This document shows, piece after piece, positions 1-30,251 of a stretch of 64,000 nt of DNA. Under the pieces are notes generated by a model. The model was given only the letters and a program-made list of their open reading frames with translations, was not told where the DNA came from and searched no databases. The position numbers were made by a program, and so were the translations under genes. The DNA is taken from positions 29,135-93,134 of IMG/VR virus record IMGVR_UViG_3300037067_021941; one strand, given 5' to 3'. This DNA is from a virus. Lineage: Duplodnaviria; Caudoviricetes. Each line of letters starts with the position of its first letter. Positions within the stretch are counted from its first letter, which is position 1.

Positions 1-3000
1 GCTACTGTTATTTGAGAGCCAGACACAATACTAACACCACTTGAACTATCAGTTGTATTTAACGTCATCGCGACTGGGGTATTTATTGCGCCAGCAGTTT
101 GTGTTGTTGTATCATAAAATGAACCATAGTATGGGCCAATGCTAGACGTACCACCAAAAACATATTTCCATGTCCCAACAATAGTATCATATGCAACCAA
201 GTTAATCCTTATCTGATTGTTACCAAATGTGATATCAGTTGAATCTAACGTTAAATTGTTGCCATCATTATCACTAATTGCGAATGGTAATGTTACGTTT
301 CCTTTAGTGTGCGTGATTGTTAAAATCCCAGCAGTCAAGTCGGAATTTGTGAAAGTACCCGAAATATAATTTCCGTCTACTCCGGTGGCACCAACTAGCC
401 CGGTGGCACCAACTATTCCGGTTGCACCAACAGGTCCTGAAGCACCACCAGTTTCACCCTGTGGACCAGTTGCACCCGTTGGTGCCAATACAGTTAACGT
501 TGTGTCGACATACGAAGCTCTCGAAGTCCCTTGATAAATCATACTAATATTACGTGTCAGGGCTGCTGTAGTATATCCAAGAGCTCTGACAATTATCCTG
601 TCGGTCGTAAGAATCGCAATATCACTCAAAACAGTGTAATCCATTTCGACAGCTGTAGCAACACCGGCACTCCTAGCAGCAATCTCTGTTGTTGAATTTG
701 TTATGAATAATTGTGTAGTTGTTCCGTCTAACGCTCGTTTAAGAACTTGATATTTAGCATAACAAAGAGTGCCACTTGCCCAGAAAGTCCCAACAAATTT
801 CCATAGACCTGCTGTGATTTTCGCTTGACCAGGGATATCTAAATCCGTTATGCAAATTATGAATGGTATACCATCTGAGTCTTCGTCTGACGCAGCAGTT
901 AGTGTTTGTGTTAATTCGCTACCAGTCGGTGGTGCTGCATTTAACCTACTACCATGTACAGTCAACACAGATGACGATGTTTCATTGGTTAAATTGTTCT
1001 CAGTTATACCACATAGAGTTAAAGTGAGTGCTGCTACAGTATGAATTGATACTGTTTTGTTGTTATTGACCGTGCCAGTAATATCAGCTATTTGCCATTG
1101 TTGCCACCCATCAGAGATAAAACTACCAGATGCACGAGTGATTGTTCTAGTCGCAGCAACATATGTCAATGTATCGGTTGTAGATGGTGTCGAGAACGAT
1201 TCGCCACCAGACGCATCAAACCAAAAACGCATCCCTGTAGTCGGGCCTTGAATACCTGTTGCACCAGTTAAACCCGTAGCACCAGATACGCCGGTGGCAC
1301 CAGTTAGACCAATACCAGTAGCGCCTGAAGCCCCATCAACACCGGTCGCACCAGAAGCGCCAGACGCTCCATCAATTCCGGTTGCACCAATTGAACCAGA
1401 AGCACCTTGCACACCAGTTGCACCAGAAGCACCAGACGCTCCATCAATTCCGGTTGCACCAGCTAAACCAGTCGCACCAGTAGATCCTGTGAAACCTGAG
1501 GCTCCTTGCACACCTGTAGCACCCGACGCACCATTAACACCAGATGCACCAATAACAATGGGACCTGTGGATCCAATTTCACCGGTAGGACCGGTAGATC
1601 CGGTCACACCAGTAGCACCAGTAGCTCCTGTCGAACCAGTGGCCCCAGGCAAGCCTACAGGGCCAGTGGTTCCTGTTGAACCTGTTGAACCTGTTGAACC
1701 GGTAATACCTATCGCGCCCGTAGAGCCAGTAAAACCAGTAGCCCCAACAACGCCAGTAGAGCCAGTAGCGCCAGTCAAGCCAATCAAGCCGGTTGCCCCT
1801 TGGCGTCCTCTATATCCAGTTGCACCCGTTGAACCCGTAGCACCAATTAAACCAATAGTGCCTGTTGCACCAGTTGAACCTGTAGCACCAGATAGACCAA
1901 TTACACCAGTAGAGCCCATAGGCCCTGTCGCTCCTGTCGCGCCTGTCGAGCCCGTAGAACCAGATAAGCCGATAGAACCAGTTGAACCAGATAAGCCTGT
2001 CGCTCCTGTCGAGCCCGTTGAACCAGTAGCACCAGATAGACCAATTACACCAGTAGAGCCTATAAGCCCTGTCGCTCCTGTTAAACCTGTTGAACCTGTT
2101 GAGCCAGATAAACCAATTAATCCAGTAGCTCCAGCTAATCCTGTAGAACCAGATAAGCCTACTAGCCCAGTAGCCCCAGTTAAACCTGTGGAGCCAGATA
2201 AACCAGTTGCTCCCGTTAAACCAATTGAACCAGATAAACCGGTAGCACCTGTTAAGCCTGTTACCCCGGATGAACCAGTAGAACCAGTCGCCCCCGTTAA
2301 GCCTGTTACACCAGGTAAACCAATAACGCCTGTTGCCCCTGTTGAACCAATATGTCCTGTTGCACCTGCAGATCCAGTTAAACCAGTCGCTCCTGTAGCA
2401 CCGGTCGAGCCAGTAGCTCCAACTAATCCCGTTGCACCTGCTAAACCGGTAGAGCCAGATATGCCTGTTGCACCTGCAGACCCAGTTAAACCAGTCGCTC
2501 CTGTAGAACCGGTCGAGCCAGTAGCTCCAACTAATCCTGTTGCACCTGTTAAGCCGACAGAACCAGATATACCTGTTGCACCCGTAGCACCGCTTGAACC
2601 TGTAGCACCAGTAAATCCAACCACACCAGTAGAGCCAGTCAACCCAGTAGCACCGGTGGCACCAGTAGAACCTGTAGCACCAGTTAAACCAATCAAACCA
2701 GTAGAACCTTGACGCCCTCTATATCCAGTGGCACCGACTGGTCCTGTTGCACCTGTTGAACCAACAATTCCTGTTGCACCTGTCGCACCTTCTATGCCGG
2801 TTTGTCCGATAGGACCGGTAGTACCAGTATGGCCAGTAGCACCAGTTACACCCGTTGCACCAGATAAACCAACTAATCCGGTTGATCCTGTTAAACCAAC
2901 AATACCAGAAGCGCCGGAAGCACCAGTTGCACCAGAAATGCCAGTGAGGCCAGTTGCACCAGAAATGCCTATTACGCCTGTCGCACCAATTTGACCAGTA

Positions 3001-3551
3001 GCTCCAATATTACCGGTAACACCACTAGCCCCGGTGCTACCAGCATATCCTATAACACCAGTACTACCTCCAACACCTGTCGCGCCAATTTGGCCAGTAG
3101 CACCATCTATACCAGTAGAGCCTTTAAAACCCGTTGCACCAGTAGAACCAGTAATACCAATTAACCCAGTCGCACCAGAAGCACCAGTAATGCCAGAAAC
3201 ACCCGAAACCCCAGTACTGCCTGTAGCACCAGTAGCTCCTGCAGCACCAGATAAACCGACAACCCCTGTAGCACCAGTTGGGCCAATCGAACCGGTCGCT
3301 CCATCAGATCCCGTTGCGCCTGATGCGCCCATGATACCAGTTGCACCAGATGCACCATAAATGCCGGAAGCGCCAACAATAATATTGTTGATCTGCTCTT
3401 GTAATGGTGCAGTTGCACCAGCTAAACACGAAAGTTCTTGCGGACTTATTCCATCAATATTATGATTGTTTAAATCCAGTGAAGCATTTAACTTTGGGGC
3501 AGGATCAAGCGCCAAGCGTGGTACTAAATTGGCGGACAAATTATCTGCCAT
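1..3551 (-). CDS. Collagen-like (Gly-X-Thr repeat) fibre/structural protein, runs off the left edge
   Basis: ATG at 3551 ([13 protein letters not shown]...), then about 2.1 kb of G-A/S-T triplets (1250-3380), then non-repetitive domains. The same frame is open at position 1. Missing from the ORF track because there is no stop in the window. Confidence 0.85.
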
Positions 3552-3680
3552 GATCGTGTTTCATTAATAGGATACAGTTGCACAAAACAATATTTAAAGT
3601 TTGTCTGCGGACCATTATGTCGCGGGGATAATCTATAGATATGAATATCTATAACAACTGGCTAGAATAGCCTGAAAGAA

Positions 3681-5318
3681 TTATTCTGCTTCTGATTGCA
3701 GCTTTTGCCAATCTTTTTTAGTCCAAAGAGGTTCTATAACAGTCCCCCTCTGTAAAACAAAACTATTACGATCTTTATCGTAATCAACTCTTAATCTAAC
3801 ACCCTTGTCGGCCACTAATAATCTCTTATTCTGATTTCTAATGTCTTGCTCCCACATTAACACCAAACAGGTCTTACGCCCGTCAGATATTATCATTCGA
3901 AGCATTGCAGAACCTCTTTTAGTCCTACCTTCTACTACGCTTACTATTACTCCCTCTAAACAATCATTAACCTTAGACTTTTCAACGGTGTGATCGCCAG
4001 TGATACGATATAAATCGATAGGAGAATGCCAATGATAACCTAAAAATTGTTTTTCAAATCTAAGAACCTGATCGAATGAATAATCTTCTGAGTATAAAGA
4101 TGCAATATCTGTATGCGTAGCTTTAATGATTGGTCTATAATTCAGTATCTTCGCAGGTATTACTTTTCTCTTCGGATATGTCTGTTTGAATACCGCGATC
4201 TGACGCTCCCTTTCTGCTGCAATTGTTTCTTCTGTCCAATTAGCTTTTGCCATAAGACAACGCATATGATAATTCTTCAATATCTTAATTGGGTAGCTGA
4301 AACTCTTTAATTTCGACTTCTTGTTAAGCTGTTGTTTTTTTGATTCTGCTATCTCTGCCTTAGCTTGTTCATCGACGTCTTTAAATTCAAAATCTTCGAC
4401 AGTACCAGAGCCATGCTCATGGAGGTACCACATCCATGTAGCTCTTTTGTTTGGGTGTAACTTAGAAAACGCACCCAATTTTATTAGTCGCTCAAAAAGA
4501 ATCTTACTCTTGCCTTTTTTCTCAATAAAATCGTCAATATCTGTATAAATATTATTACCGACTTTATCAACAAATGCTATCGCCGCCTTATCACCAATTT
4601 TCTTTAGACTTGTTAAACCAAGTGCTATATGTTTATTTGATACGTTGAGACCAGAGTGTGCAGTTGGATGCAATGTAAGCTTTGCTATGTCAATTTCACC
4701 AAATTTGACGTCTTCACCACGTGCGGCAGACATATATCGTTCAAGAGCCTGTTGGTCACATGTCCCCATTACGCTCGCCCACCATTCTTCGGCGAAATGT
4801 GCTTTAAGCCAAAGACAACGATATGCCCATAAGCAATAGCAGATAGCATGACTTAAATTAAAAGCGTATCGACCGAATGTCTCCATCTTATCCCAATATT
4901 CACGTGCTTTCGACTCGCCAATCTTCTTACTTGCACCAGTCAGCCAATGTTCTCTAACTGGCTTTAATTTCTCTTTCCATTTCTTTGCAACTGCTTTTCT
5001 TGCATCTTGCGATTCTGGACCAGTAAACCCCGCAATGCATTGCCATATGGATGTAAGTTGCTCTTGAAACACAATTACACCGCTTGTTATGCTTAAGATT
5101 TTGACAATATCTGGGTGTTCACCTTGTGCCCATCTATTGCTGGTGTCATCGCGATTTTTGACATAATCTGGGATAGAATTGTGAACCAAAACACTATTGG
5201 CAAAGAAATTACCCTCATTCTGCCAACATTGCTCAAAGTTGCCAATATCATAAACATCTTCTTCGTCGCACTCTTCGATGCTTATGATTTCAGCTAATTC
5301 TAAACCATCTGTGCCCAT
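3681..5318 (-). CDS. dnaE: DnaE fragment 4: split-intein C-half (IntC-2) fused to the C-terminal fingers/HhH/OB region
   Basis: N-terminus ...VYDI...NFFANSVLVHN|S is an intein F/G block. It is followed by GVIVFQEQ, GRYAFNLSHAICY, GLTSLKKIG and an OB-fold-like end typical of Pol III alpha. Confidence 0.92.
   Translation of the reverse strand: MGTDGLELAEIISIEECDEEDVYDIGNFEQCWQNEGNFFANSVLVHNSIPDYVKNRDDTSNRWAQGEHPDIVKILSITSGVIVFQEQLTSIWQCIAGFTGPESQDARKAVAKKWKEKLKPVREHWLTGASKKIGESKAREYWDKMETFGRYAFNLSHAICYCLWAYRCLWLKAHFAEEWWASVMGTCDQQALERYMSAARGEDVKFGEIDIAKLTLHPTAHSGLNVSNKHIALGLTSLKKIGDKAAIAFVDKVGNNIYTDIDDFIEKKGKSKILFERLIKLGAFSKLHPNKRATWMWYLHEHGSGTVEDFEFKDVDEQAKAEIAESKKQQLNKKSKLKSFSYPIKILKNYHMRCLMAKANWTEETIAAERERQIAVFKQTYPKRKVIPAKILNYRPIIKATHTDIASLYSEDYSFDQVLRFEKQFLGYHWHSPIDLYRITGDHTVEKSKVNDCLEGVIVSVVEGRTKRGSAMLRMIISDGRKTCLVLMWEQDIRNQNKRLLVADKGVRLRVDYDKDRNSFVLQRGTVIEPLWTKKDWQKLQSEAE
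5178..5318 (-). other. Split intein C-terminal half IntC-2
   Basis: 47 aa ending VHN (5178-5186), followed by Ser+1 (5175-5177). Strongly acidic. Confidence 0.9.
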
Positions 5319-6457
5319 AGTCCACCAATGAAATTATTAGAACTTTCAACTATATTAACAAGCCGCTGGTCGTTGATGCTTTTATTACAATACAGCTCTT
5401 TTTCCGTGATTAGCTTGTATGATGAATTATGGCAAGCGGCATACTCAACACCAGCCTTAATTTTCGCAATTTCTCGTTTTTCGTCATATATCTGCGGATT
5501 GCTGGCCTTAATTTCGACCATCCTACACCCATCAATAAGGAAATCGCAAAAATACCGATGACCTTGCCATGGTATTATAGGACGATTTCTTAATAATGAA
5601 ATTGGCTTAAATCGCTCACACCAAACAATAAAATCAAGTTCATATGAAGAATCGTACGGATAACATTGGCCAAAATATTCACTGAAATATTTATGTTTAA
5701 TAGTGAAGTTCGGATGATTCTCTAGCCAACGCCTCCAGCACTCTTTGGAACAGAATTTACGAGACCATTTACTGCAAACAGATAAAAATGGTGCTCCACA
5801 TGACTTGCATTTAGTTTGCTGAACACGCGCAGCCAATGCTGGATCAATTACGTAATTCGGATGAACAAGACGTTTGCGATAAGAAAGCCAACATGATGAT
5901 GAACAAAAAATTAAACCAGATGCATATCTACGACTAGCGGTTTGAATAAATTGTTCGCCGCATTCTCCACAACATACCAATTCAGGATCTTTAGCGAATG
6001 GATATGTGTGTTGAAACCATTGAATGTCGAGAGAATGTTGTTGTCTAATTTCGTTTTGTTTGGCGTTACCGGCAGCAACGAACACCGCTAACATATTACG
6101 TCGATCTTCTACTGAAGCCGATTTAACCTTTTTAACCCAGGATTGACGAGCGTCCGATAGTTGTTTGCAGTCAGCCTTGAATCGTCCCGCAGACCACATT
6201 GATTTATTTTGGTCAGCACGACGTATACGTTCAAAAGTAGTATTCATCCTCTCGCGCGTTTTGTCTGCATAAGACCGTATCGACTCATTAGTCTGTTCAG
6301 TCAATCCTTTATTCCATGGTGGAGGAGTTGCAATATTCAACTGAAATTCACGTGCTATACGATAAATATATGCAACATGAACACACAGTTTTTGGCTTAT
6401 ACTCTTCGCGTATTCACCGTTATTGACCAGCCGGATTATTTCCTGTTTTTTCGACAT
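5300..6457 (-). mobile_element. Free-standing putative homing endonuclease (Zn-finger repeats + TnsA-like PD-(D/E)XK nuclease) between the intein halves
   Basis: CxxC/FCSxxC repeats and C-terminal YDSSYELDF...YFCDFLID...VEIK. Overlaps both flanking dnaE fragments. Likely start MSKKQ at 6457. Confidence 0.75.
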
Positions 6458-6725
6458 ACAATTTATCTTTGATTGACAATTGCCCGACTGGTTTAATGCC
6501 GAAATCACCAAACATCCAATGGTTGGCGGAAGCTTTAATCGTCGCACCATTACTTAAACGAATACGATATACTTTTTTGCGTCCTGTCTTGAAAACCCTA
6601 TAATTGTCAGTGAGATCCGAATTACCTTTCGAATTAACATATTTTATCTTGTGTACATTATGATCTACCTGATCAATCCTAATGTTGCCTATATTAGTGC
6701 TAACTAATGTATCGGCAGCTAAACA
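6420..6725 (-). other. Split intein N-terminal half IntN-2
   Basis: Cys1 at 6723-6725 after HPGPMQ. About 100 aa with Hint motifs (KKVYRIRLSNGATIKASANH), then a stop. Confidence 0.9.
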
Positions 6726-8030
6726 CTGCATCGGACCAGGATGCCCCATAGCATTAAAAATCAATAAGTCTCGAAAGCTATGCACGCCAGCGGATAATGT
6801 TCGTTTAGCAAGCTCAGTATCAAATTGGAAAATACTGTCAGTCTGTGAATCGTTAGCTAATTTTAAAGCCGCTGGGTCTTCTAGTGGTATTGTCTTCTTC
6901 TCACCATTCTCCCAATAATATCCAGCAACGTTATTAATCTGATCAGAATCGTCCCATCCTTGCAGTTGGTCACCAAATGATATGCCATGATTCTCCCTGA
7001 TCATCTCACACGCTGTCTTTATATATGATAGGTTCTTCAACCCAAGTATATCCCATTTGACATAGCCAAATTTCGATAATTGTGTATTGCGGCCCTCCGT
7101 CCATATGCTTACCCATTGATCGGTCTTTTTGTCATATTGCATCGGTACATTACCGAATAAATCCCGATCCGCAATAATAAGACCACCAGCATGTTTTCCT
7201 GCGTGCTTAATGCGACCAACTAGACGTATCGCAGTATCGATTACCTGCTGATGTGCCTCCTTATTCTCTGCTACAAATTGCCCAATCTCCGGATGGTCTC
7301 TCATTATCATAGCGATAGTTGGTGTGTCAGTATCACCGCTATGACATTGTGGACATTCTAGACCTTTGTGTTTGAAACCACATTCTTTGTCGACACCATC
7401 CTCTTTTACACGACCTTTACAAGCACCATATCCACCTTCGCGCATTTCATTAACTTCATCTGGCAAGATTTTTGTTAATTCAATCGCTCTATTTTTAGTG
7501 CCTTGATCTCGATCTATCTTTTCAAGCCCAAGTCCAGAATAGGCATCTGCGATAGCTTGCTTTAAAAGATAAGCCTGCCAAGTACCAACACTTGCCACAT
7601 TACGTTTCCCATATCGCTTAGCGACATAATCTTTAATCTGGTTCCTAGCTTCTGGTAAACAATCAATGTCTATATCTGGTTTATCGTCGTCTTGACGAAT
7701 ATCAGATGGTAGTTTACCAGTCTTTTTTAAGACAGCTTGAACATCGTCATACCTCGCACTAAGCATCAATGGACCATTTCTATGTGCGATTGGATCGATA
7801 TTTGCATCACCAGTGAAACGATTAAGTAGCCATGGTAGTAGAAGTTGATTTGGATTTTTATCAAACTCTTTACCAGATTCTATCAGATCTTCCCAATACC
7901 TTTGGGCTCCTTGCATGCGAATCTGATCTAATTCAAAATCTAGTCGCTTGGTATAAATCTCTGGTAAGCTCAATCGCTGTATCTTTTTATGGGCGATTTG
8001 TGCAATTTTCTCAAATTCAAATTTACCCAT
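6420..8030 (-). CDS. dnaE: DnaE fragment 3: catalytic palm/thumb fused to split-intein N-half (IntN-2)
   Basis: PDIDID, GKHAGGLII, KWDILGLKNL, IFQFD and HPGPMQ, then intein block A CLAADTLV and block B ASANH. Confidence 0.92.
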   Translation of the reverse strand: MGKFEFEKIAQIAHKKIQRLSLPEIYTKRLDFELDQIRMQGAQRYWEDLIESGKEFDKNPNQLLLPWLLNRFTGDANIDPIAHRNGPLMLSARYDDVQAVLKKTGKLPSDIRQDDDKPDIDIDCLPEARNQIKDYVAKRYGKRNVASVGTWQAYLLKQAIADAYSGLGLEKIDRDQGTKNRAIELTKILPDEVNEMREGGYGACKGRVKEDGVDKECGFKHKGLECPQCHSGDTDTPTIAMIMRDHPEIGQFVAENKEAHQQVIDTAIRLVGRIKHAGKHAGGLIIADRDLFGNVPMQYDKKTDQWVSIWTEGRNTQLSKFGYVKWDILGLKNLSYIKTACEMIRENHGISFGDQLQGWDDSDQINNVAGYYWENGEKKTIPLEDPAALKLANDSQTDSIFQFDTELAKRTLSAGVHSFRDLLIFNAMGHPGPMQCLAADTLVSTNIGNIRIDQVDHNVHKIKYVNSKGNSDLTDNYRVFKTGRKKVYRIRLSNGATIKASANHWMFGDFGIKPVGQLSIKDKLYVEKTGNNPAGQ

Positions 8031-8036
8031 GATATC

Positions 8037-8510
8037 TTATAATAATGTAGTAATTGTATTGCTGTCGCTATTGATACCAGTCTCTACTGTTGTTTTAGCT
8101 ATATCAAAAGCTTGTTGCAATTGTTCTTTTGTTCCAATTAATACTATCAAATTTTCAAATAAATCAGCTTTCTCACGAAAACGACGTATCAACTCGATAT
8201 TTTTCTTAGGCACCAACTTGAATTCGCCGTCTACACGTTCCATAAACTGCGCAACGTACTTAGTTGTAACTAATTCGACTGGTGCTTTGCGTAGTCGCAA
8301 TACAGGAGTTGCTTTAATGCTCATCAAACCCAATATAGCAGCTTTCAGATCACATTGAGGTCCTGTACTGCTACCAACAAGCTCACTGATAACTCTTATG
8401 GCCTTACGATCATGATCGTCAACATAATGCAATCCGGCAGCACAAGCACCGCGTTGTGTCGGTTTACCGTTATCAATGCTATAACCGCAAGCATATATTG
8501 AAATCTTCAT
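8037..8510 (-). CDS. RNase HI-fold protein with a degenerate active site
   Basis: MKISIYACGYS..NG resembles IYTDGS; STGPQCDLKAAILGL resembles TNNxAELxA; TTKYV resembles DSxYV. Confidence 0.6.
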   Translation of the reverse strand: MKISIYACGYSIDNGKPTQRGACAAGLHYVDDHDRKAIRVISELVGSSTGPQCDLKAAILGLMSIKATPVLRLRKAPVELVTTKYVAQFMERVDGEFKLVPKKNIELIRRFREKADLFENLIVLIGTKEQLQQAFDIAKTTVETGINSDSNTITTLL

Positions 8511-8965
8511 TGTTCTCCTCTAAGTTTTTTACCGTCAGCATCAGTGAGTTGTGGATATTCAGCGCCAGTAATCTCTTTGAGTTGAGCAATCGCCATGCCA
8601 AGTACATTAAAAAATACAGTGCAACGCTCAGATGTGTTTATTGATTCAGTAACCTTCATACAATCAATAATGCTTTTCATACTAGCGTTGGCCTTAATGC
8701 GAAGTTCAATTGCATTGTATGTATTTGTTAACTCTTTCAGTCTATCTAATATTCCTAGTATCGCAGCTTCAAGAGAAATAGCAGCAAGCGTATAGAGCGT
8801 TTTAGCTTGATCGGTATCACCAGGCGGAAGACATCCAATGAATTCAATCAATCTCATATTCATCTGCCCTAACAACGGGCATGGTTCGCCCACTAAGAGT
8901 AAATAATCGCTCATAGCGGCATGTAACGATTTTAATGACGATTGAAAAATATCTTTAGCCATCAA
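8507..8965 (-). CDS. Hypothetical helical protein inside the dnaE locus
   Basis: 152-aa ORF overlapping both neighbours (translational coupling). Confidence 0.65.
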   Translation of the reverse strand: MMAKDIFQSSLKSLHAAMSDYLLLVGEPCPLLGQMNMRLIEFIGCLPPGDTDQAKTLYTLAAISLEAAILGILDRLKELTNTYNAIELRIKANASMKSIIDCMKVTESINTSERCTVFFNVLGMAIAQLKEITGAEYPQLTDADGKKLRGEQ

Positions 8966-9272
8966 TTTTAGTCCTTAAAAGATAACCACCACGCGAACTA
9001 GCTAAGAAACGATCAAAACTCAACTTCCATTTAAGACTATTGATATTATGAATGCCAAGCAAATAACACACAAGTGAGCCAGCAGCCGAATTGGAGCTGA
9101 AAACGCCATTTAACCTGTAAGTGTTGGTATTACTTACTTGCAAATCAAACACCTTACCTGTGTAATGACGCCTCGATATGCTTTTTATTTTTAGCCTCTC
9201 TACGGAACCTGCTGATACCAATGCTTGCAATTCGCTGATGTTTCGGATCTGTGAAGGCAATAATTGTTGCAT
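8955..9272 (-). CDS. dnaE: DnaE fragment 2: split-intein C-half (IntC-1) + 44-aa extein SAAGSLVCYLLGI...FDRFL
   Basis: YTGKVFDLQV...YRLNGVFSSN|SAAGSLVCYLLGI. ATG at 9272 with GGAGAG upstream. Asn at 9090-9092, Ser+1 at 9087-9089. Confidence 0.9.
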   Translation of the reverse strand: MQQLLPSQIRNISELQALVSAGSVERLKIKSISRRHYTGKVFDLQVSNTNTYRLNGVFSSNSAAGSLVCYLLGIHNINSLKWKLSFDRFLASSRGGYLLRTKIDG

Positions 9273-10215
9273 TGTTAATCTCTCCGATTTGTTTCCACAT
9301 ATGTCCACCGCCCAACCTACGTAGAATACATTCAGTTAGTAGTCTTTCAGTGTCGTATAGTATATACGAGTCTGCAATGCCTGTTTCAGCGATATAACTA
9401 TTTGCCGCTGTTTGTTTTTCAGCAACATTACTCTTATAGAAACCTTTCACTTCGATTATCGTCCGCTCACCATTTCTATCAACTACGAAGAAGTCTGGAT
9501 GATAGAAATGATTACCATATGCAATTGCAAAATTACACCTTCTAATTTTGCTATATTTATTTCTTACACCCCATAGAAATATCAGTTCGTATGCACTATC
9601 AAACCTTATCTTATGCCCGTTAATCAGAACCGTACCTTCGACAGATCGACTTCTTCTACGGTGTTTATTAGCATATTCCGGATCGATCTGCATTGTTTTA
9701 TTATGCAGATCGAACGCTCTCAAGCACTGTATTCTATAATCTTTATTCTGCCATAGTAATCTACTATTATTTCTATTTAATTCTAATTTCGCAGGCTCAT
9801 TTTGTATCAAATTATCGAGACATTTTAAACAGATATTGTCATATTGGTAATGCTTTCTATCTGCGAGTTTAGACCATCGTATGCGGTACTCACAACCACA
9901 TTCATGACATTCAAATCTAACTAATATCTTTGAAGATACTCCCATCAGATATTTTATTGCTATTTTGTAGTCTATACAACCACTGAATATCTGATAATGA
10001 AATTCTTCCGGAACAGCCTTAAACACAGCGCTAGATTTTGCTAATTTAAGTAAACATTTTCGGCATATATGCTCGTTTTTATATGTCTCTCTATATCTTA
10101 AATTATGGGTTGTCGTTGCACAATTCACACCACATTTTTCACAATTATAAGTAATCCTGACATATTTCATGGGTACGGGTGGCTTGTTGGTCCTGTAAGC
10201 TACCAATGATTTCAT
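9154..10215 (-). mobile_element. Free-standing putative homing endonuclease (Zn ribbons + TnsA-like PD-(D/E)XK nuclease) between the intein halves
   Basis: CxxC pairs and FDSAYELIF...YHPDFFV...IIEVKG. Overlaps the IntN-1 end and the IntC-1 start. Start is uncertain (10215 or 10170). Confidence 0.75.
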
Positions 10216-10474
10216 CTGTATCTTTGATTTCAGATGCCGGCAAAAGCATAACCAAGCCACCCCTGATAACATATAATTTATGATCGGCAGTGATTGTTAT
10301 CATACAACCATCTAATTCAAAGACAAACAACTCCTCTGAAACATCATAAATAAATTTATTCTCAACGGTTTGTTCATTTCCAAAGCCATCTTGTATCTTG
10401 TCTCCTATCTGGATATCTTCAATTTTCTTTTGTTGGTAATGATTGATATTTATTAGCGAGTCTGGAATAGTGCA
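10145..10474 (-). other. Split intein N-terminal half IntN-1
   Basis: Block A CTIPDSLI, KKIEDIQIGD, block B ITADHKLYV, ASEIKDTDEI. Acidic. Confidence 0.9.
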
Positions 10475-11743
10475 GCCGCGAGGCCCAAATATCCAGCCTT
10501 GTCGTTTACCCCATTGTATCCAGTCTCTAGTTATCAAGAAATAACTAGAAAAGCCCTTATCAATAAATCGGTTTAACTCTATCTCTGCTTGTTCTGCGTA
10601 CGTGACATCACGCCCATCACATGACCATTTTGTTGTATCTTTGTCCCAGCCACGTAAATGAAGCTGTTCATTGACTATAGCACGCAACACATCATTGGCA
10701 TTTGTTCCAGGTTCTATAACCGACCAATTTGGAATTTTGGGTGACGTATCTGGCATAAGTTTATCACATCGTTCTGCAATTAACAGCGTATTATCGCACA
10801 TTTCTTCAAATTTGACGTCGTCTATTCCGTTAGAATAATCACCATTCTTGAATGTCGTCCAAAGCTCTGCTCGCGATTTGAAAAACTGCTCATCGCCCTG
10901 TGATGCGAACATTTTAGTATCATGAATATTGGTTTTCTGATCGACCGCCATCATGATCTTCTGCAGATATGCGTCTTCACGTGTCAGATAATGAGCGTCA
11001 TTTGTAAGCACTAATCTAACACCATACTTATCAGCAAGTTCAATAAGTTGGTGAAAAACAGCGACGTCATGTAACTCAGCGATGCACGGCATCTGCACTT
11101 CGATAAAGAAATCTTCACCAAACACTCCCTTGAATTCTTTTAAATATTCAATTGCCGTCTTGTCGGCTCTACTACGCGGATATTTCTTTCCATCTTTAAT
11201 ATTATTTTCAATGTCTAGCCGCAGTTCATATGATAACGGACCATTAACACACCCAGATAAAACAATTAATCCTTCTTTGAGTTCGCATAATCTTTCAAAC
11301 CAAATACGAGGTTTGCCAATATATGAGTGTTCCCAAGCCAACGTTGTTAATTTAATCAGGTTAGAAACACCGGTAGAGTTCTTTGCTAAAACGGTTAAGT
11401 GCCGATTACGCATAATACGCTGTTTAAGACTATCAGGTAATAAATCACGTTTTTTTCCTGATTCTTCAATTTTCTTACGCAAAGTCTCATAGGCATTGAA
11501 ATATATCTCAGAACCACTTATATACTTCAAACCTCGTTTCTTGAAAGCAAAATGCATATCTGGAAAAGATGCCATGTGGCCATGCTCTGTAGCGGCCATG
11601 GCTGGAAAGCCAAGCTTCGCACAGGCGTCTGCATATTGTTCTGCTGATGGTACTCCGTCTAAAGAGCTGAATAAAGAATGCACATGTAAATGCGCAAATT
11701 CTTTGGGACCATTATACTGAGATGGTTCAATTTCTTCCAACAT
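10145..11743 (-). CDS. dnaE: DnaE fragment 1: PHP domain + start of palm fused to split-intein N-half (IntN-1)
   Basis: HLHVHS..SLDG, TEHG, HLTVLAKN, NDAHY, GFSSYFL and GPRG, then CTIPDSLI...ITADH. Cys1 at 10472-10474. Confidence 0.93.
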   Translation of the reverse strand: MLEEIEPSQYNGPKEFAHLHVHSLFSSLDGVPSAEQYADACAKLGFPAMAATEHGHMASFPDMHFAFKKRGLKYISGSEIYFNAYETLRKKIEESGKKRDLLPDSLKQRIMRNRHLTVLAKNSTGVSNLIKLTTLAWEHSYIGKPRIWFERLCELKEGLIVLSGCVNGPLSYELRLDIENNIKDGKKYPRSRADKTAIEYLKEFKGVFGEDFFIEVQMPCIAELHDVAVFHQLIELADKYGVRLVLTNDAHYLTREDAYLQKIMMAVDQKTNIHDTKMFASQGDEQFFKSRAELWTTFKNGDYSNGIDDVKFEEMCDNTLLIAERCDKLMPDTSPKIPNWSVIEPGTNANDVLRAIVNEQLHLRGWDKDTTKWSCDGRDVTYAEQAEIELNRFIDKGFSSYFLITRDWIQWGKRQGWIFGPRGCTIPDSLININHYQQKKIEDIQIGDKIQDGFGNEQTVENKFIYDVSEELFVFELDGCMITITADHKLYVIRGGLVMLLPASEIKDTDEIIGSLQDQQATRTHEICQDYL

Positions 11744-11747
11744 ATTC

Positions 11748-11900
11748 TTATTCTTGCGTCCTTAAACAGTCTCCTCGGCAGAATGGGCATAACCATTTAT
11801 CACCAACCAATTGCAAATCGTTCGTGGCCTGATTACATCCTTCACAATCATAAATACGACCTGGAAAGTCGAAATGGTCATGTTCATCTTCACAAGCCAT
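11748..11900 (-). CDS. Small Zn-finger protein
   Basis: CEGC...CPFC. ATG at 11900 with GGAG upstream. Confidence 0.5.
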   Translation of the reverse strand: MACEDEHDHFDFPGRIYDCEGCNQATNDLQLVGDKWLCPFCRGDCLRTQE

Positions 11901-11911
11901 GATATGCTCCG

Positions 11912-12982
11912 TCAAGATGCCGATGCAGCAATAAGACACCCTTCTGCTACAGCAAATAATGGGTCTTTACATCTCTTCACTTTATTGACTTCAAAAGGCA
12001 TCTTCTCTTCTTTAAATAGTTGTGATACCATCTCTTCAAAACCGGCTGGACATGATGTTCCACCAGCCATGAATACGTCAATGGGCTTATCTATACGAGC
12101 ATTTGTTTCGTTATCAATAAACCCTTGCACAATGCCACGTATTACGTTTTGAATCAAAATGCGATAATGTAAAATAATATCAAGTTCAAGTCGTGTTGTG
12201 TAAGCCTGCGTCAAATCGATTTTCTCTTTCATCCTGCATACTGTAGTCGGCGTCTCTGCCGATTTCTTACGCAGTACTTCAGTGTCATATCCATGCCGCT
12301 TTGCGACTTCGGTATCAATCCAATCGCCAGCACCAACCCAGCTAAATGAATAAATCTCATTTCCCCAAAGAACATAACTGACAGTGACAGTGCCAGCACC
12401 CCAAGAAATACCGATACCAGTAGCATCAGGTGTCTCTTTAAGCACTAATGCATGCGATTCTTTTATGGAAGAAGTTTTAATACTCGATATGGTTTGATAC
12501 CCAGAAATAATCAAATTTAAAACTTGCTGATGGTAATCAATGTTACTCGGTCGATTCAACGCTTTAGCTGTAGTACAATAACATAGTTTGATTTCCGGTT
12601 CAAACTCACCAGCATCATGTTCAGCCATAGATAGCAAACCCTGCACAATGCTAGATAACACCATAAGAGCCGCTTCATCAGGGGCTACACCACCCTCAGC
12701 CATTGGACGCAGTAATGTGTCATTATGTGCGTAAGCTAATTCTTCCGCGTCCTTGCCCAACACATAAATGCCGTCCTGGTTATCCAGGCGAATCCATTTT
12801 GCTGGCCGCTTAGTCCCATCAGACCGCATTTTATTTGGGTCATCAAGCATATTCTCTATGAATTTGCTTGGACGAGGAATCAAATAGTAACCATTGATTT
12901 CCCTGAGAAACACCGTTTTCTTATTGTGATAGAACGAAACAACTATGTTTTTCGTCCCAATGTCGATACCAATCGCATTCAT
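11912..12982 (-). CDS. Actin-like ATPase (MreB/ParM/MamK superfamily)
   Basis: Phosphate-1 IGIDIGTKN, connect ESHA, phosphate-2 GISWGAGT, AGDWID, adenosine MAGGTS, PLFAVAEG. AGGAGAG RBS before ATG 12982. Confidence 0.85.
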   Translation of the reverse strand: MNAIGIDIGTKNIVVSFYHNKKTVFLREINGYYLIPRPSKFIENMLDDPNKMRSDGTKRPAKWIRLDNQDGIYVLGKDAEELAYAHNDTLLRPMAEGGVAPDEAALMVLSSIVQGLLSMAEHDAGEFEPEIKLCYCTTAKALNRPSNIDYHQQVLNLIISGYQTISSIKTSSIKESHALVLKETPDATGIGISWGAGTVTVSYVLWGNEIYSFSWVGAGDWIDTEVAKRHGYDTEVLRKKSAETPTTVCRMKEKIDLTQAYTTRLELDIILHYRILIQNVIRGIVQGFIDNETNARIDKPIDVFMAGGTSCPAGFEEMVSQLFKEEKMPFEVNKVKRCKDPLFAVAEGCLIAASAS

Positions 12983-28649: not shown

Positions 28650-30251
28650 TCAGTATTGTTTTAGTGTATTCAAGAAATTCTTAACATCGCCACTAGGCAT
28701 CTCTATTCTTGTAAACGATTCTGGATATAAAACGCTAAGTATGGTATAAAACGCTTCTTCTGTGCCCATATATTTATTTTGAATGGCCCATTCTATTTCA
28801 GAATAAAATAATGGTGTCACATGTTGGATTTGCTGTTTCGTTCCACCAAATAGTGTGGCTCGACAGACGTAATTTGGATTCCTGGTGCATCGCTCAATCA
28901 TCCCATTAATATTATAGCCGTGTATCTCAGCATTCGTATAGTATGGATATGATGTAATGAAAAATTTGTCTTTTGGTATTCTCGTAAAATAGAACTGATT
29001 AAGATCATCAGATATGTGAAAACTATTACATATACCAGAGTCGATCCAATAAAAATAACTACTATTATTAGTTCTGGTGGCGGCATCTAACATACGCTGT
29101 TTCATCAACGTCATAGCAACATAGTGCCGCGAGCTTATAACACTGTCCTTCATCCATGCGGATTGGGTATCCCAACCGAAACTAGAAACAACATCAAGCA
29201 CACCTTGAAAATAATCACATGCTTCGATATCGGTAGTATTGAACTTAACAAGAGTTAAATCGTGATTACCTCGTAACTTTTTCATTAATTCGAAATGTTT
29301 TTCATCACAGTGTAGAATTAAACGATGCCTAGTATTTAGTATCTTCTTGACACCCTCTAAGTAATGAGTCTCAAAATCTCTGTCGTTTCTACCAAGATCA
29401 ACTAACATAGAAACAAGAGTGATGTCATGCGGATGACGGTAGCCTTTATCAAGAAAACGATAATTGAACTGTGGATAAATCCTGTCGTGTTTCAGTTCAT
29501 TCGGAATATAATCCTCTGGTGTTTTGGTATCATCCGGCCTTCTACCAGCAATCGCACTGCAATCGTCCCCAAGATGTCTTACATATTCCTGGCCGCCTAA
29601 GAATACTGCTTTATATCCTAACGCTAAAAATTTCCTATCAATATTCCATTCGTTATGCCATTTCTCAACACGACCAAGCCATATCAGATCATCACGTCGT
29701 TTGAGATTAGGACTGCCAACCCACCCATACCAAGCCAGATGATAATCTGTTATTGTCCAGGGTTTCTTGTTATAGTAAGAGACCTTTGTGCCGTCATTAG
29801 CCGTGAATGTAATTAAATTCTTATCGTAAGCTTTGATCCCTTGCCATTCGAATGTTCGCCAAGAAATATCGACAGTGCCGATATTTCTATACTTTTGCAG
29901 TATACGCTTAGAATCAATTAGATAACCGGGTTTTAGAAATTCCCAATCGTCTTCTAAATAGAAAATGTATTCGGAATCGCAATATGATACCATGAAATCC
30001 ATAGCCCACCACTGGCTACGATTTCTAGGGAAGCAAATAACATCACAATAAGTGCCATATTCTTCTACAAGCTTTTCAAAAACGCCCTCAACTGCACTAT
30101 CGTCGACTATCACCATCTTGGTTGCGTAGTCTCTTGTGGCTATAAATGATGCCAATGTTTTTCTTAGAACGTCTAGCCTATTACAACTCAAAACGAATGT
30201 TGTAGTATCTGAATCTGGTTGTTCTACTGTATGAAACTTAGCTTTGTTCAT
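28650..30251 (-). CDS. GT2-like domain fused to an HtrL/YibB-like domain
   Basis: IVDDS, YLEDDW; then [12 protein letters not shown]...YFYWIDSG...LFGG...GTEE. Confidence 0.7.

Follow-up and report, generated by a model that had tools for sequence, protein, structure and literature searches.

Do the opposite charges of two split inteins lodged in the DnaE genes of a single phage amount to a naturally evolved code that keeps the two pairs apart, or did each intein simply bring its own charges along? The question is raised by a stretch of 64,000 nucleotides, hereafter the window, which covers positions 29,135 to 93,134 of the IMG/VR virus record IMGVR_UViG_3300037067_021941 (Duplodnaviria; Caudoviricetes). 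Here, two genes that together encode DNA polymerase III (Pol III) alpha, or DnaE, are each interrupted by a split intein: intein 1 has an acidic N-terminal half (IntN-1) and a basic C-terminal half (IntC-1), and intein 2 shows the reverse. Protein ligation makes routine use of split inteins, and orthogonal pairs of them are sought after; a natural charge code would have supplied a design rule, and the comparative evidence argues against such a rule here. The locus is an ordinary fractured-gene locus, not an evolved orthogonality code. The explanation that we favour, to which a probability of about 0.8 can be given, is that two fractured-gene inteins of unrelated lineages entered a natively two-gene DnaE by separate homing events, each with a polarity inherited in its lineage, and that the mirror image of charges is a by-product.

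Two split inteins with opposite charges

The splicing signatures are the same in both inteins: Cys1 stands directly after a conserved extein, relatives with empty sites fix the junctions to the residue, block B carries a Thr/Ser-x-x-His motif, and a terminal Asn is followed by Ser+1. Intein 1 is bounded by ...GPRG↓CTIPDS upstream and ...SSN↓S downstream (the arrow marks the junction), which defines an insertion at GPRG↓SAAGS, and intein 2 by ...HPGPMQ↓CLAADT and ...VHN↓S, with insertion at HPGPMQ↓SIPDY; the outermost positions given in a preliminary description of the locus, 5178 and 10474, are indeed intein boundaries. Matches to known intein profiles and structures are each weak alone, and become convincing together with these precise junctions. 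For IntN-1, the best match in the PDB is 9hth, a chain annotated as 'DNA-directed DNA polymerase' (E 4e-4), followed more weakly by a bacterial intein-like domain and the Pho RadA intein, whereas IntN-2 best matches DnaB mini-inteins (E 8e-6). IntC-1 aligns with positions 120-155 of the Pfam Intein_splicing profile, a family also matched by IntN-2 and IntC-2, in all three cases below the gathering score, and IntC-2 finds the gp41-1 intein (6qaz) as its best and weak PDB match (E 1.4). A profile search for further inteins in the whole 93-kb record returned only the known halves, with a sensitivity limited by the fact that the profile missed IntN-1.

Both inteins also have the layout of fractured genes, their halves lying in separate open reading frames (ORFs) of the same strand with an out-of-frame endonuclease candidate between them, and the net charges of the halves are complementary, -12/+5 (IntN/IntC) for intein 1 and +8/-12 for intein 2. 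The counts of charged residues reported in the preliminary description for the four halves were reproduced exactly by translation and counting, and the net charge of IntC-1 was the same from the alternative starts tested, the start codons of both IntC halves being predicted ones. Taken singly, the skew was significant in a sign test on charged residues for IntC-2 (p = 5e-4) and IntN-1 (p = 0.036), and not for IntN-2 (p = 0.15) or IntC-1 (p = 0.23). Despite the two weak values the skew can be considered real, because it is focused on the strand pair that corresponds to the charge zipper of the literature, where the local net charges are -5/+4 in intein 1 and +6/-10 in intein 2, and because it is kept across the relatives of each intein. 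Pair 2 is therefore charge-reversed with respect to pair 1, as had been claimed, on the pairing strands as well as globally.

Inheritance of charge polarity and its possible meaning

Comparison was made with 114 non-redundant related loci, collected through three scans of viral contigs with pieces of the window and two alignment-based scans, one of viral and the other of metagenome contigs. In a tree of the split inteins found there, three families were well separated, with a support of 100/100 for those at sites 1 and 3. The family of intein 1 (site 1, GPRG↓SA(A/G)GS, 8 loci) has an IntN of -12 to -17 and an IntC of +5 to +10, and the one at site 3 of gene B (AFNK↓SH, 11 loci) an IntN of -10 to -17 and an IntC of +1 to +6, so that all members of both (8/8 and 11/11) are N-acidic/C-basic. 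The opposite state was found at the site of intein 2 (HPGPMx↓S), where the window, L055 and L112 carry an IntN of +7 to +9 and an IntC of -11 to -14. Since these three form one supported clade (97/96), the polarity of intein 2 was inherited.

How widespread the N-basic form may be was seen from a search with IntN-2 among 1.8 billion representative proteins (a 50%-identity library), which gave 34 relatives of the split type. Their net charges range from -12 to +16, and 21 of them are basic; nine of the ten that were scanned lie in DnaE fragments. Occupancy of site 1 could not be judged from the representative proteins alone, these being of the gene B type and without that site, and genomic contexts were used instead. 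They contributed three more N-basic site-2 inteins, L193 (IntN +14, the IntC not being on the contig), L195 (+16/-16) and L199 (+9/-13), in all of which gene A is one intact ORF whose alignment runs unbroken through site 1. Altogether, five site-2 inteins of reversed polarity (L055, L112, L193, L195 and L199) face an empty site 1, and the window is the only case with intein 1 as a neighbour. The preliminary description had proposed that reversed charge might occur only in genomes carrying both inteins, and named an equal frequency in solitary homologues as what would speak against a code; this is what was found.

Loci with two split inteins point in the same direction. L122, which shares its contig with L065, a complete genome of 355.8 kb with terminal repeats, holds a site-1 intein of -14/+9 together with a site-2 intein of -12/+3, and L124/L064 combines a site-1 intein of -17/+6 with a site-3 intein of -17/+5. 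Thus, one of the three double-split loci (the window) has opposite polarities and two have the same, and the expectation that co-resident split inteins differ in charge does not hold. As co-resident split inteins of sister phages can share polarity, other features of the sequence must provide their specificity.

Within the site-2 family, at identities of 27-47%, the charges are exchanged between branches. A basic IntN strand (...GRKKVYRIRL...) goes with an acidic IntC start in the window, L055 and L112, whereas an acidic strand (...GEKEIFEIET...) goes with a basic or neutral IntC, such as one starting MKIKSITSK..., in L122, L136 and L041; the last two are inserted at site 2u, 26 amino acids (aa) upstream of site 2, and have net charges of -5 (IntN) and -2 to -6 (IntC). 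Judged from these alignments, this is a natural compensated charge swap in which both halves changed together.

Moreover, both inteins behave as mobile elements, each independent of the other, as far as can be deduced from their distribution. The closest relative (L005/L035), with extein identities of 80-93%, lacks both inteins, the two sites being precisely empty; intein 1 occurs alone, with an endonuclease, in L008, the site-2 intein alone in L006/L012 and L112, and neither intein in L005, L007, L009, L011 and L013. IntN-1 is 55-70% identical to those at the same site in L008, L019, L020, L021 and L025, and IntC-1 66-80% identical in relatives; the values for intein 2 are 31-35% for IntN-2 at the same site and 42-49% for the IntC of L006 and L010. 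In three loci (L043:5783-6279, L088:4168-4679 and L126:7633-8135), intein 1 is an unsplit, contiguous mini-intein (~165-170 aa) that is read in a single open frame and lacks the endonuclease gene, acidic in its N and basic in its C part as in the split form. The endonuclease candidate of intein 1 (HEG1) is present in its split relatives and absent from these contiguous forms, a pattern which indicates that split and contiguous intein 1 interconvert at one site.

According to the favoured explanation, each gene would have been invaded independently by a mobile element consisting of a split intein with a free-standing endonuclease gene between its halves. Trans-splicing between IntN-1 and IntC-1 would produce protein A (~467 aa) and that between IntN-2 and IntC-2 protein B (~933 aa), that is, four polypeptides joined in two reactions, and the two products presumably assemble non-covalently. 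Cognate halves would meet through their complementary charged strands and then splice, a step taken over from the literature, where electrostatic 'capture' in split-intein association is established (10.1101/546465, PMC2677866). Which half is acidic and which basic would be a heritable property of the lineage that arrived with the element, always N-acidic/C-basic in the family of intein 1 and N-basic/C-acidic in the clade of intein 2. Orthogonality between the two inteins is to be expected anyway because they are only ~20% identical, and discrimination between the pairs most likely rests mainly on this divergence, with opposite charge as at most an added bonus. Several points weigh against this explanation. 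Only three loci carry two split inteins, and most of the related contigs are fragments, 'solitary' meaning here solitary within the dnaE genes and not in the whole phage. Moreover, we infer both the orthogonality and its cause, and the non-covalent assembly of A and B is deduced only from the conserved gene arrangement. Finally, charge engineering has worked in a DnaB-derived split intein (10.1101/546465), which by analogy makes a functional role of the opposite polarity plausible.

The preliminary description, whose interpretation is partly supported overall, went further and proposed that opposite polarity had evolved or been selected in response to the presence of both split inteins in one cell, with repulsion between like charges blocking the wrong pairs. 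The mirror image itself is real, globally and on the pairing strands, and polarity is evolvable, as it flips within the site-2 family with compensation in both halves (L122 and L136 vs the window, L055 and L112). It is also correct that the wrong pairings (IntN-1 with IntC-2, IntN-2 with IntC-1) are like-charged and that either would give a dead-end product, albeit between two separate genes and not among three fragments of one chain, and that engineered charge changes can yield orthogonality, as in the DnaB case. However, the five solitary inteins against one co-resident, the placement of the N-basic/C-acidic state on one branch, with solitary inteins in the clade that descends from it, and the same polarity in two of the three double-split loci are all at odds with selection by a partner. 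In this line, reversed polarity had already been described for gp41-1 and gp41-8, which reside in single-intein genes (PMC2677866; 10.1101/546465), and gp41-1, gp41-8, NrdJ-1 and IMPDH-1 are mutually orthogonal although gp41-1/gp41-8 and NrdJ-1/IMPDH-1 are pairs of the same polarity (Pinto et al., PMC7090010); orthogonality therefore does not require opposite polarity. An adaptive code in this phage is thus very improbable. A variant in which the site-2 swap arose in an ancestor that already had an N-acidic/C-basic split intein, was selected for orthogonality, and later homed into genomes without the partner also seems improbable to us; if true, the window, L055, L112, L195 and L199 on one side and L122 and L136 on the other would be a natural orthogonal series from one scaffold.

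A milder possibility, compatible with the favoured explanation, is that the polarity is inherited and the opposite charges nevertheless lower the number of non-cognate encounter complexes in this phage. The capture step and the strong local strand charges speak for it, as does the non-specific electrostatic association reported in vitro for non-cognate halves (PMC7090010), but sister phages manage with same-polarity pairs, and in Npu DnaE the swap of strand charges alone did not abolish cross-activity (10.1101/546465); such a secondary benefit is conceivable, and somewhat doubtful. On the other hand, one or both inteins could be dead, with polymerase pieces that are pseudogene fragments or work unspliced. 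In intein 1 the usual penultimate His is replaced by Ser (...SSN), and the start codon of IntC-1, whose ORF overlaps HEG1, is uncertain. Against decay, that Ser is kept in 8/8 members of the family, including contiguous forms without whose splicing gene A could not function, no ORF is disrupted, Cys1, block B His, terminal Asn and +1 Ser are present in both inteins, and the exteins keep their high identity to intein-free relatives. It is hard to see these inteins as relics, and we regard this as extremely improbable.

What the locus offers, under the favoured explanation, is a new natural and presumably orthogonal pair of opposite polarity, comparable to the combinations of gp41-1 with NrdJ-1 or IMPDH-1 in use. 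The charge-swapped relatives at site 2 are a clean data set on the share of the charge zipper in partner choice, and the two forms of intein 1, split with an endonuclease and contiguous without one, document the interconversion proposed for fractured genes. Modestly new are the presence of two fractured split inteins in neighbouring genes for the same polymerase, the site-2 swap, the occurrence of intein 1 in both forms, and the number of insertion sites in this DnaE, at least nine in this phage clade: sites 1, 2, 2u and 3, three more occupied by contiguous inteins, and two breaks without intein.

The two-gene polymerase and its other breaks

The source record has an estimated completeness of 26% in CheckV, consistent with a piece of a jumbo-phage genome. 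Eight minus-strand ORFs lie within 3681-11743, and the features that they encode are collected in Table 1.

Table 1. Features of the dnaE locus. Positions are window coordinates and all features are on the minus strand; D/E and K/R are counts of acidic and basic residues, and pI is the isoelectric point.
Feature	Position	Length (aa)	Remarks
ORF ext1 + IntN-1	10145-11743		
Gene A N-extein, ext1	10475..11743	423	PHP domain and start of Pol III alpha palm; C-terminal ...GPRG adjoins intein 1
IntN-1	10148..10474	109	Cys1; block B TADH; stop 10145-10147; 20 D/E, 8 K/R; pI 4.3
HEG1, free-standing endonuclease candidate	9154..10272	372	Out of frame; overlaps both intein-1 half ORFs
ORF IntC-1 + 44 aa extein	8955-9308		
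IntC-1	9090..9272	61	From ATG at 9272, alternative GTG at 9308; ends ...SSN, then Ser+1; 3 D/E, 8 K/R
Gene A C-extein, ext2a	8958..9089	44	SAAGSLVCYLLGI...FDRFL..., then stop 8955-8957
orf152	8507..8965		Conserved small gene between the dnaE genes
orf157	8037..8510		Second conserved small gene between the dnaE genes
ORF ext2b + IntN-2	6420-8030		
Gene B N-extein, ext2b	6726..8030	435	114-aa N-terminal domain, palm (PDIDID...), part of fingers; ...HPGPMQ adjoins intein 2
IntN-2	6423..6725	101	Cys1; block B SANH; stop 6420-6422; 8 D/E, 16 K/R; pI 9.8
HEG2, free-standing endonuclease candidate	5300..6550	416	Overlaps IntN-2 ORF end and IntC-2 start
ORF IntC-2 + ext3	3681-5318		
IntC-2	5178..5318	47	Ends ...VHN, then Ser+1; 12 D/E, 0 K/R; pI 4.05
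Gene B C-extein, ext3	3684..5177	498	Remaining fingers, HhH, C-terminal domains

By their profile matches, the exteins are consecutive parts of Pol III alpha, from PHP through palm and fingers to HhH. The first one, ext1, matches Pfam PHP (E 1e-32), positions 16-66 of the DNA_pol3_alpha profile and Pol III alpha structures in the PDB (E 1e-32), and aligns contiguously with the intein-free gene A of L005; ext2a continues the same profile (66-98), is joined directly to ext1 in all intein-free relatives and ends at the same point as their genes. The profile goes on in ext2b (99-260, plus fingers), and DNA_pol3_finger and HHH_6 are matched by ext3, ext2b and ext3 being one contiguous stretch in intein-free relatives.

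The single chain implied by the preliminary reading would have required a middle fragment with IntC-1 and IntN-2 on one polypeptide. Instead, a stop is met 44 codons past IntC-1 and two genes lie in between, and therefore inteins 1 and 2 interrupt two different genes. Gene A (ext1 + ext2a) and gene B (ext2b + ext3) are separate in every relative of the clade, and the order gene A, orf152, orf157, gene B is kept in these relatives wherever the individual pieces were mapped. In distant DnaEs (≤30% identity), residue 456 of gene A directly abuts residue 116 of gene B in one reading frame. Because the two-gene form is clade-wide and the distant DnaEs are contiguous, the break at 8955 is best read as a lineage trait and not as an intein site. 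A group I intron or other RNA at this break was also considered and rejected: with a permissive cut-off, positions 3000-12500 had a single Rfam match, to a microRNA and at chance level.

Both small genes between the dnaE genes are conserved, orf152 with 27-63% identity and in the corresponding place in 10 of the related loci that were mapped and orf157 with 26-90% identity in relatives; neither they nor the N-terminal domain of gene B had a match in Pfam or PHROG searches. The domain is the last part of a region (7689-9089) that also takes in the end of gene A and the two small genes. Homologues of this 114-aa domain match the Pfam palm segment with which gene A ends, starting at about profile position 15, and in one homologue, P0002, a Pfam match spans profile positions 15-260. 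The domain looks like a degenerate duplicate of the end of gene A without the GPGRGS motif (RLxFELxxIxxQG...NPNxLLLPWLL...DP), as suggested by the P0002 match and the motif resemblance and by these only; BLASTP showed no significant similarity between the domain and the C-terminal part of gene A (E 6.2).

As for the endonuclease candidates, HEG1 has weak Pfam matches (TnsA-like and DUF790) and PHROG matches to endonucleases and resolvases, and HEG2 has a weak TnsA-like match and PHROG matches to 'HNH endonuclease' families (E 3e-7); a sequence search of the PDB with HEG2 found no homologue of solved structure. The two share a PD-(D/E)xK-like core (YEL...DF...E[VI]K) with several CxxC pairs upstream of it. 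Their overlaps with the ORFs of the intein halves, of 19-155 nucleotides, suggest tightly coupled expression.

Other insertions and breaks were observed in the DnaE of related phages. Contiguous inteins of ~365-445 aa, large enough for an embedded endonuclease domain, are found in gene A near residue ~77 (L061, L084, L085 and L123) and ~249 (L061, L063 and L124), and in gene B near ~474 (L123). Gene B is also broken near residue ~353 without intein termini in L069:10681-17178 and L126:10702-11810, where a basic tail of ~40 aa closes the N piece (e.g. ...KKYAVKLKNGEILLLNHGDKI...) and the C piece opens with a short acidic one (e.g. MINFEDIESIEEINDIS). The former is similar to the central part of a site-2-type IntN and the latter to the initial strand of the corresponding IntC, and by this resemblance they may be splicing-dead intein remnants that serve as association tags. 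In two more distant relatives (L024:11532-11837 and L071:9603-9971), the N-domain of gene B is split into two ORFs at residues ~81-120, and the N piece carries an acidic beta-strand-like tail (...GEVLEIFLDNGQ...), possibly another intein-remnant fracture. Outside dnaE, two ORFs in the record of L065 (G004), of 1455 and 529 aa (181.8-184.6 kb and 259.4-259.9 kb), contain additional contiguous matches to inteins, and the phages of this group are intein-rich.

Comparison with known systems

An experimental parallel to the natural swap at site 2 is found in the charge-swapped Npu DnaE and the charge-engineered NpuDnaB pair (10.1101/546465), where the charges of the pairing strands were altered by design; pairs inverted in this way should be less prone to cross-association. 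Those are variants of one intein tested biochemically, whereas the two co-resident inteins of the window belong to unrelated lineages.

Intein 2 resembles gp41-1 (6QAZ), whose charges were found to be opposite to those of Npu DnaE (Beyer et al. 2019, 10.1101/546465). Both are N-basic/C-acidic, the best though weak PDB match of IntC-2 is this intein, and the DnaB mini-inteins that IntN-2 matches best were named as the closest structural relatives of gp41-1 (10.1101/546465). Unlike gp41-1, intein 2 sits in another host gene and at another site, and as the similarity is not significant the same allele is not claimed.

Intein 1, in turn, recalls the cyanobacterial Npu/Ssp DnaE split intein (4lx3, 1zd7), with which it shares a Pol III alpha host and the N-acidic/C-basic polarity. 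The window inteins, however, occupy other sites and are ~20% identical to the site-3 family, whose members in the sister phages are homologous to the cyanobacterial intein (E 3e-5). Site-3 split inteins were observed in eleven jumbo-phage loci (e.g. L124:11336-11656), with a gap of ~1.2-4.1 kb between the halves. Their insertion point (AFNK↓SH) presumably lies a few residues from the junction of the cyanobacterial DnaE intein, and they may bear on the origin of the latter. In cyanobacteria, the halves of DnaE are at distant loci without an endonuclease between them (PMC2677866), whereas those of the window flank one.

A precedent for the locus as a whole is provided by the fractured genes described by Dassa et al. 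(2009, NAR, PMC2677866), which included three DnaE loci (DnaE-1, -2 and -3) and both charge polarities. As in those genes, an N-extein with IntN, an out-of-frame endonuclease ORF and an IntC with its C-extein follow each other on one strand, the host is a phage-like DnaE, and the charges of the halves are complementary; unlike them, the window contains two such elements, in adjacent genes of a natively two-gene DnaE.

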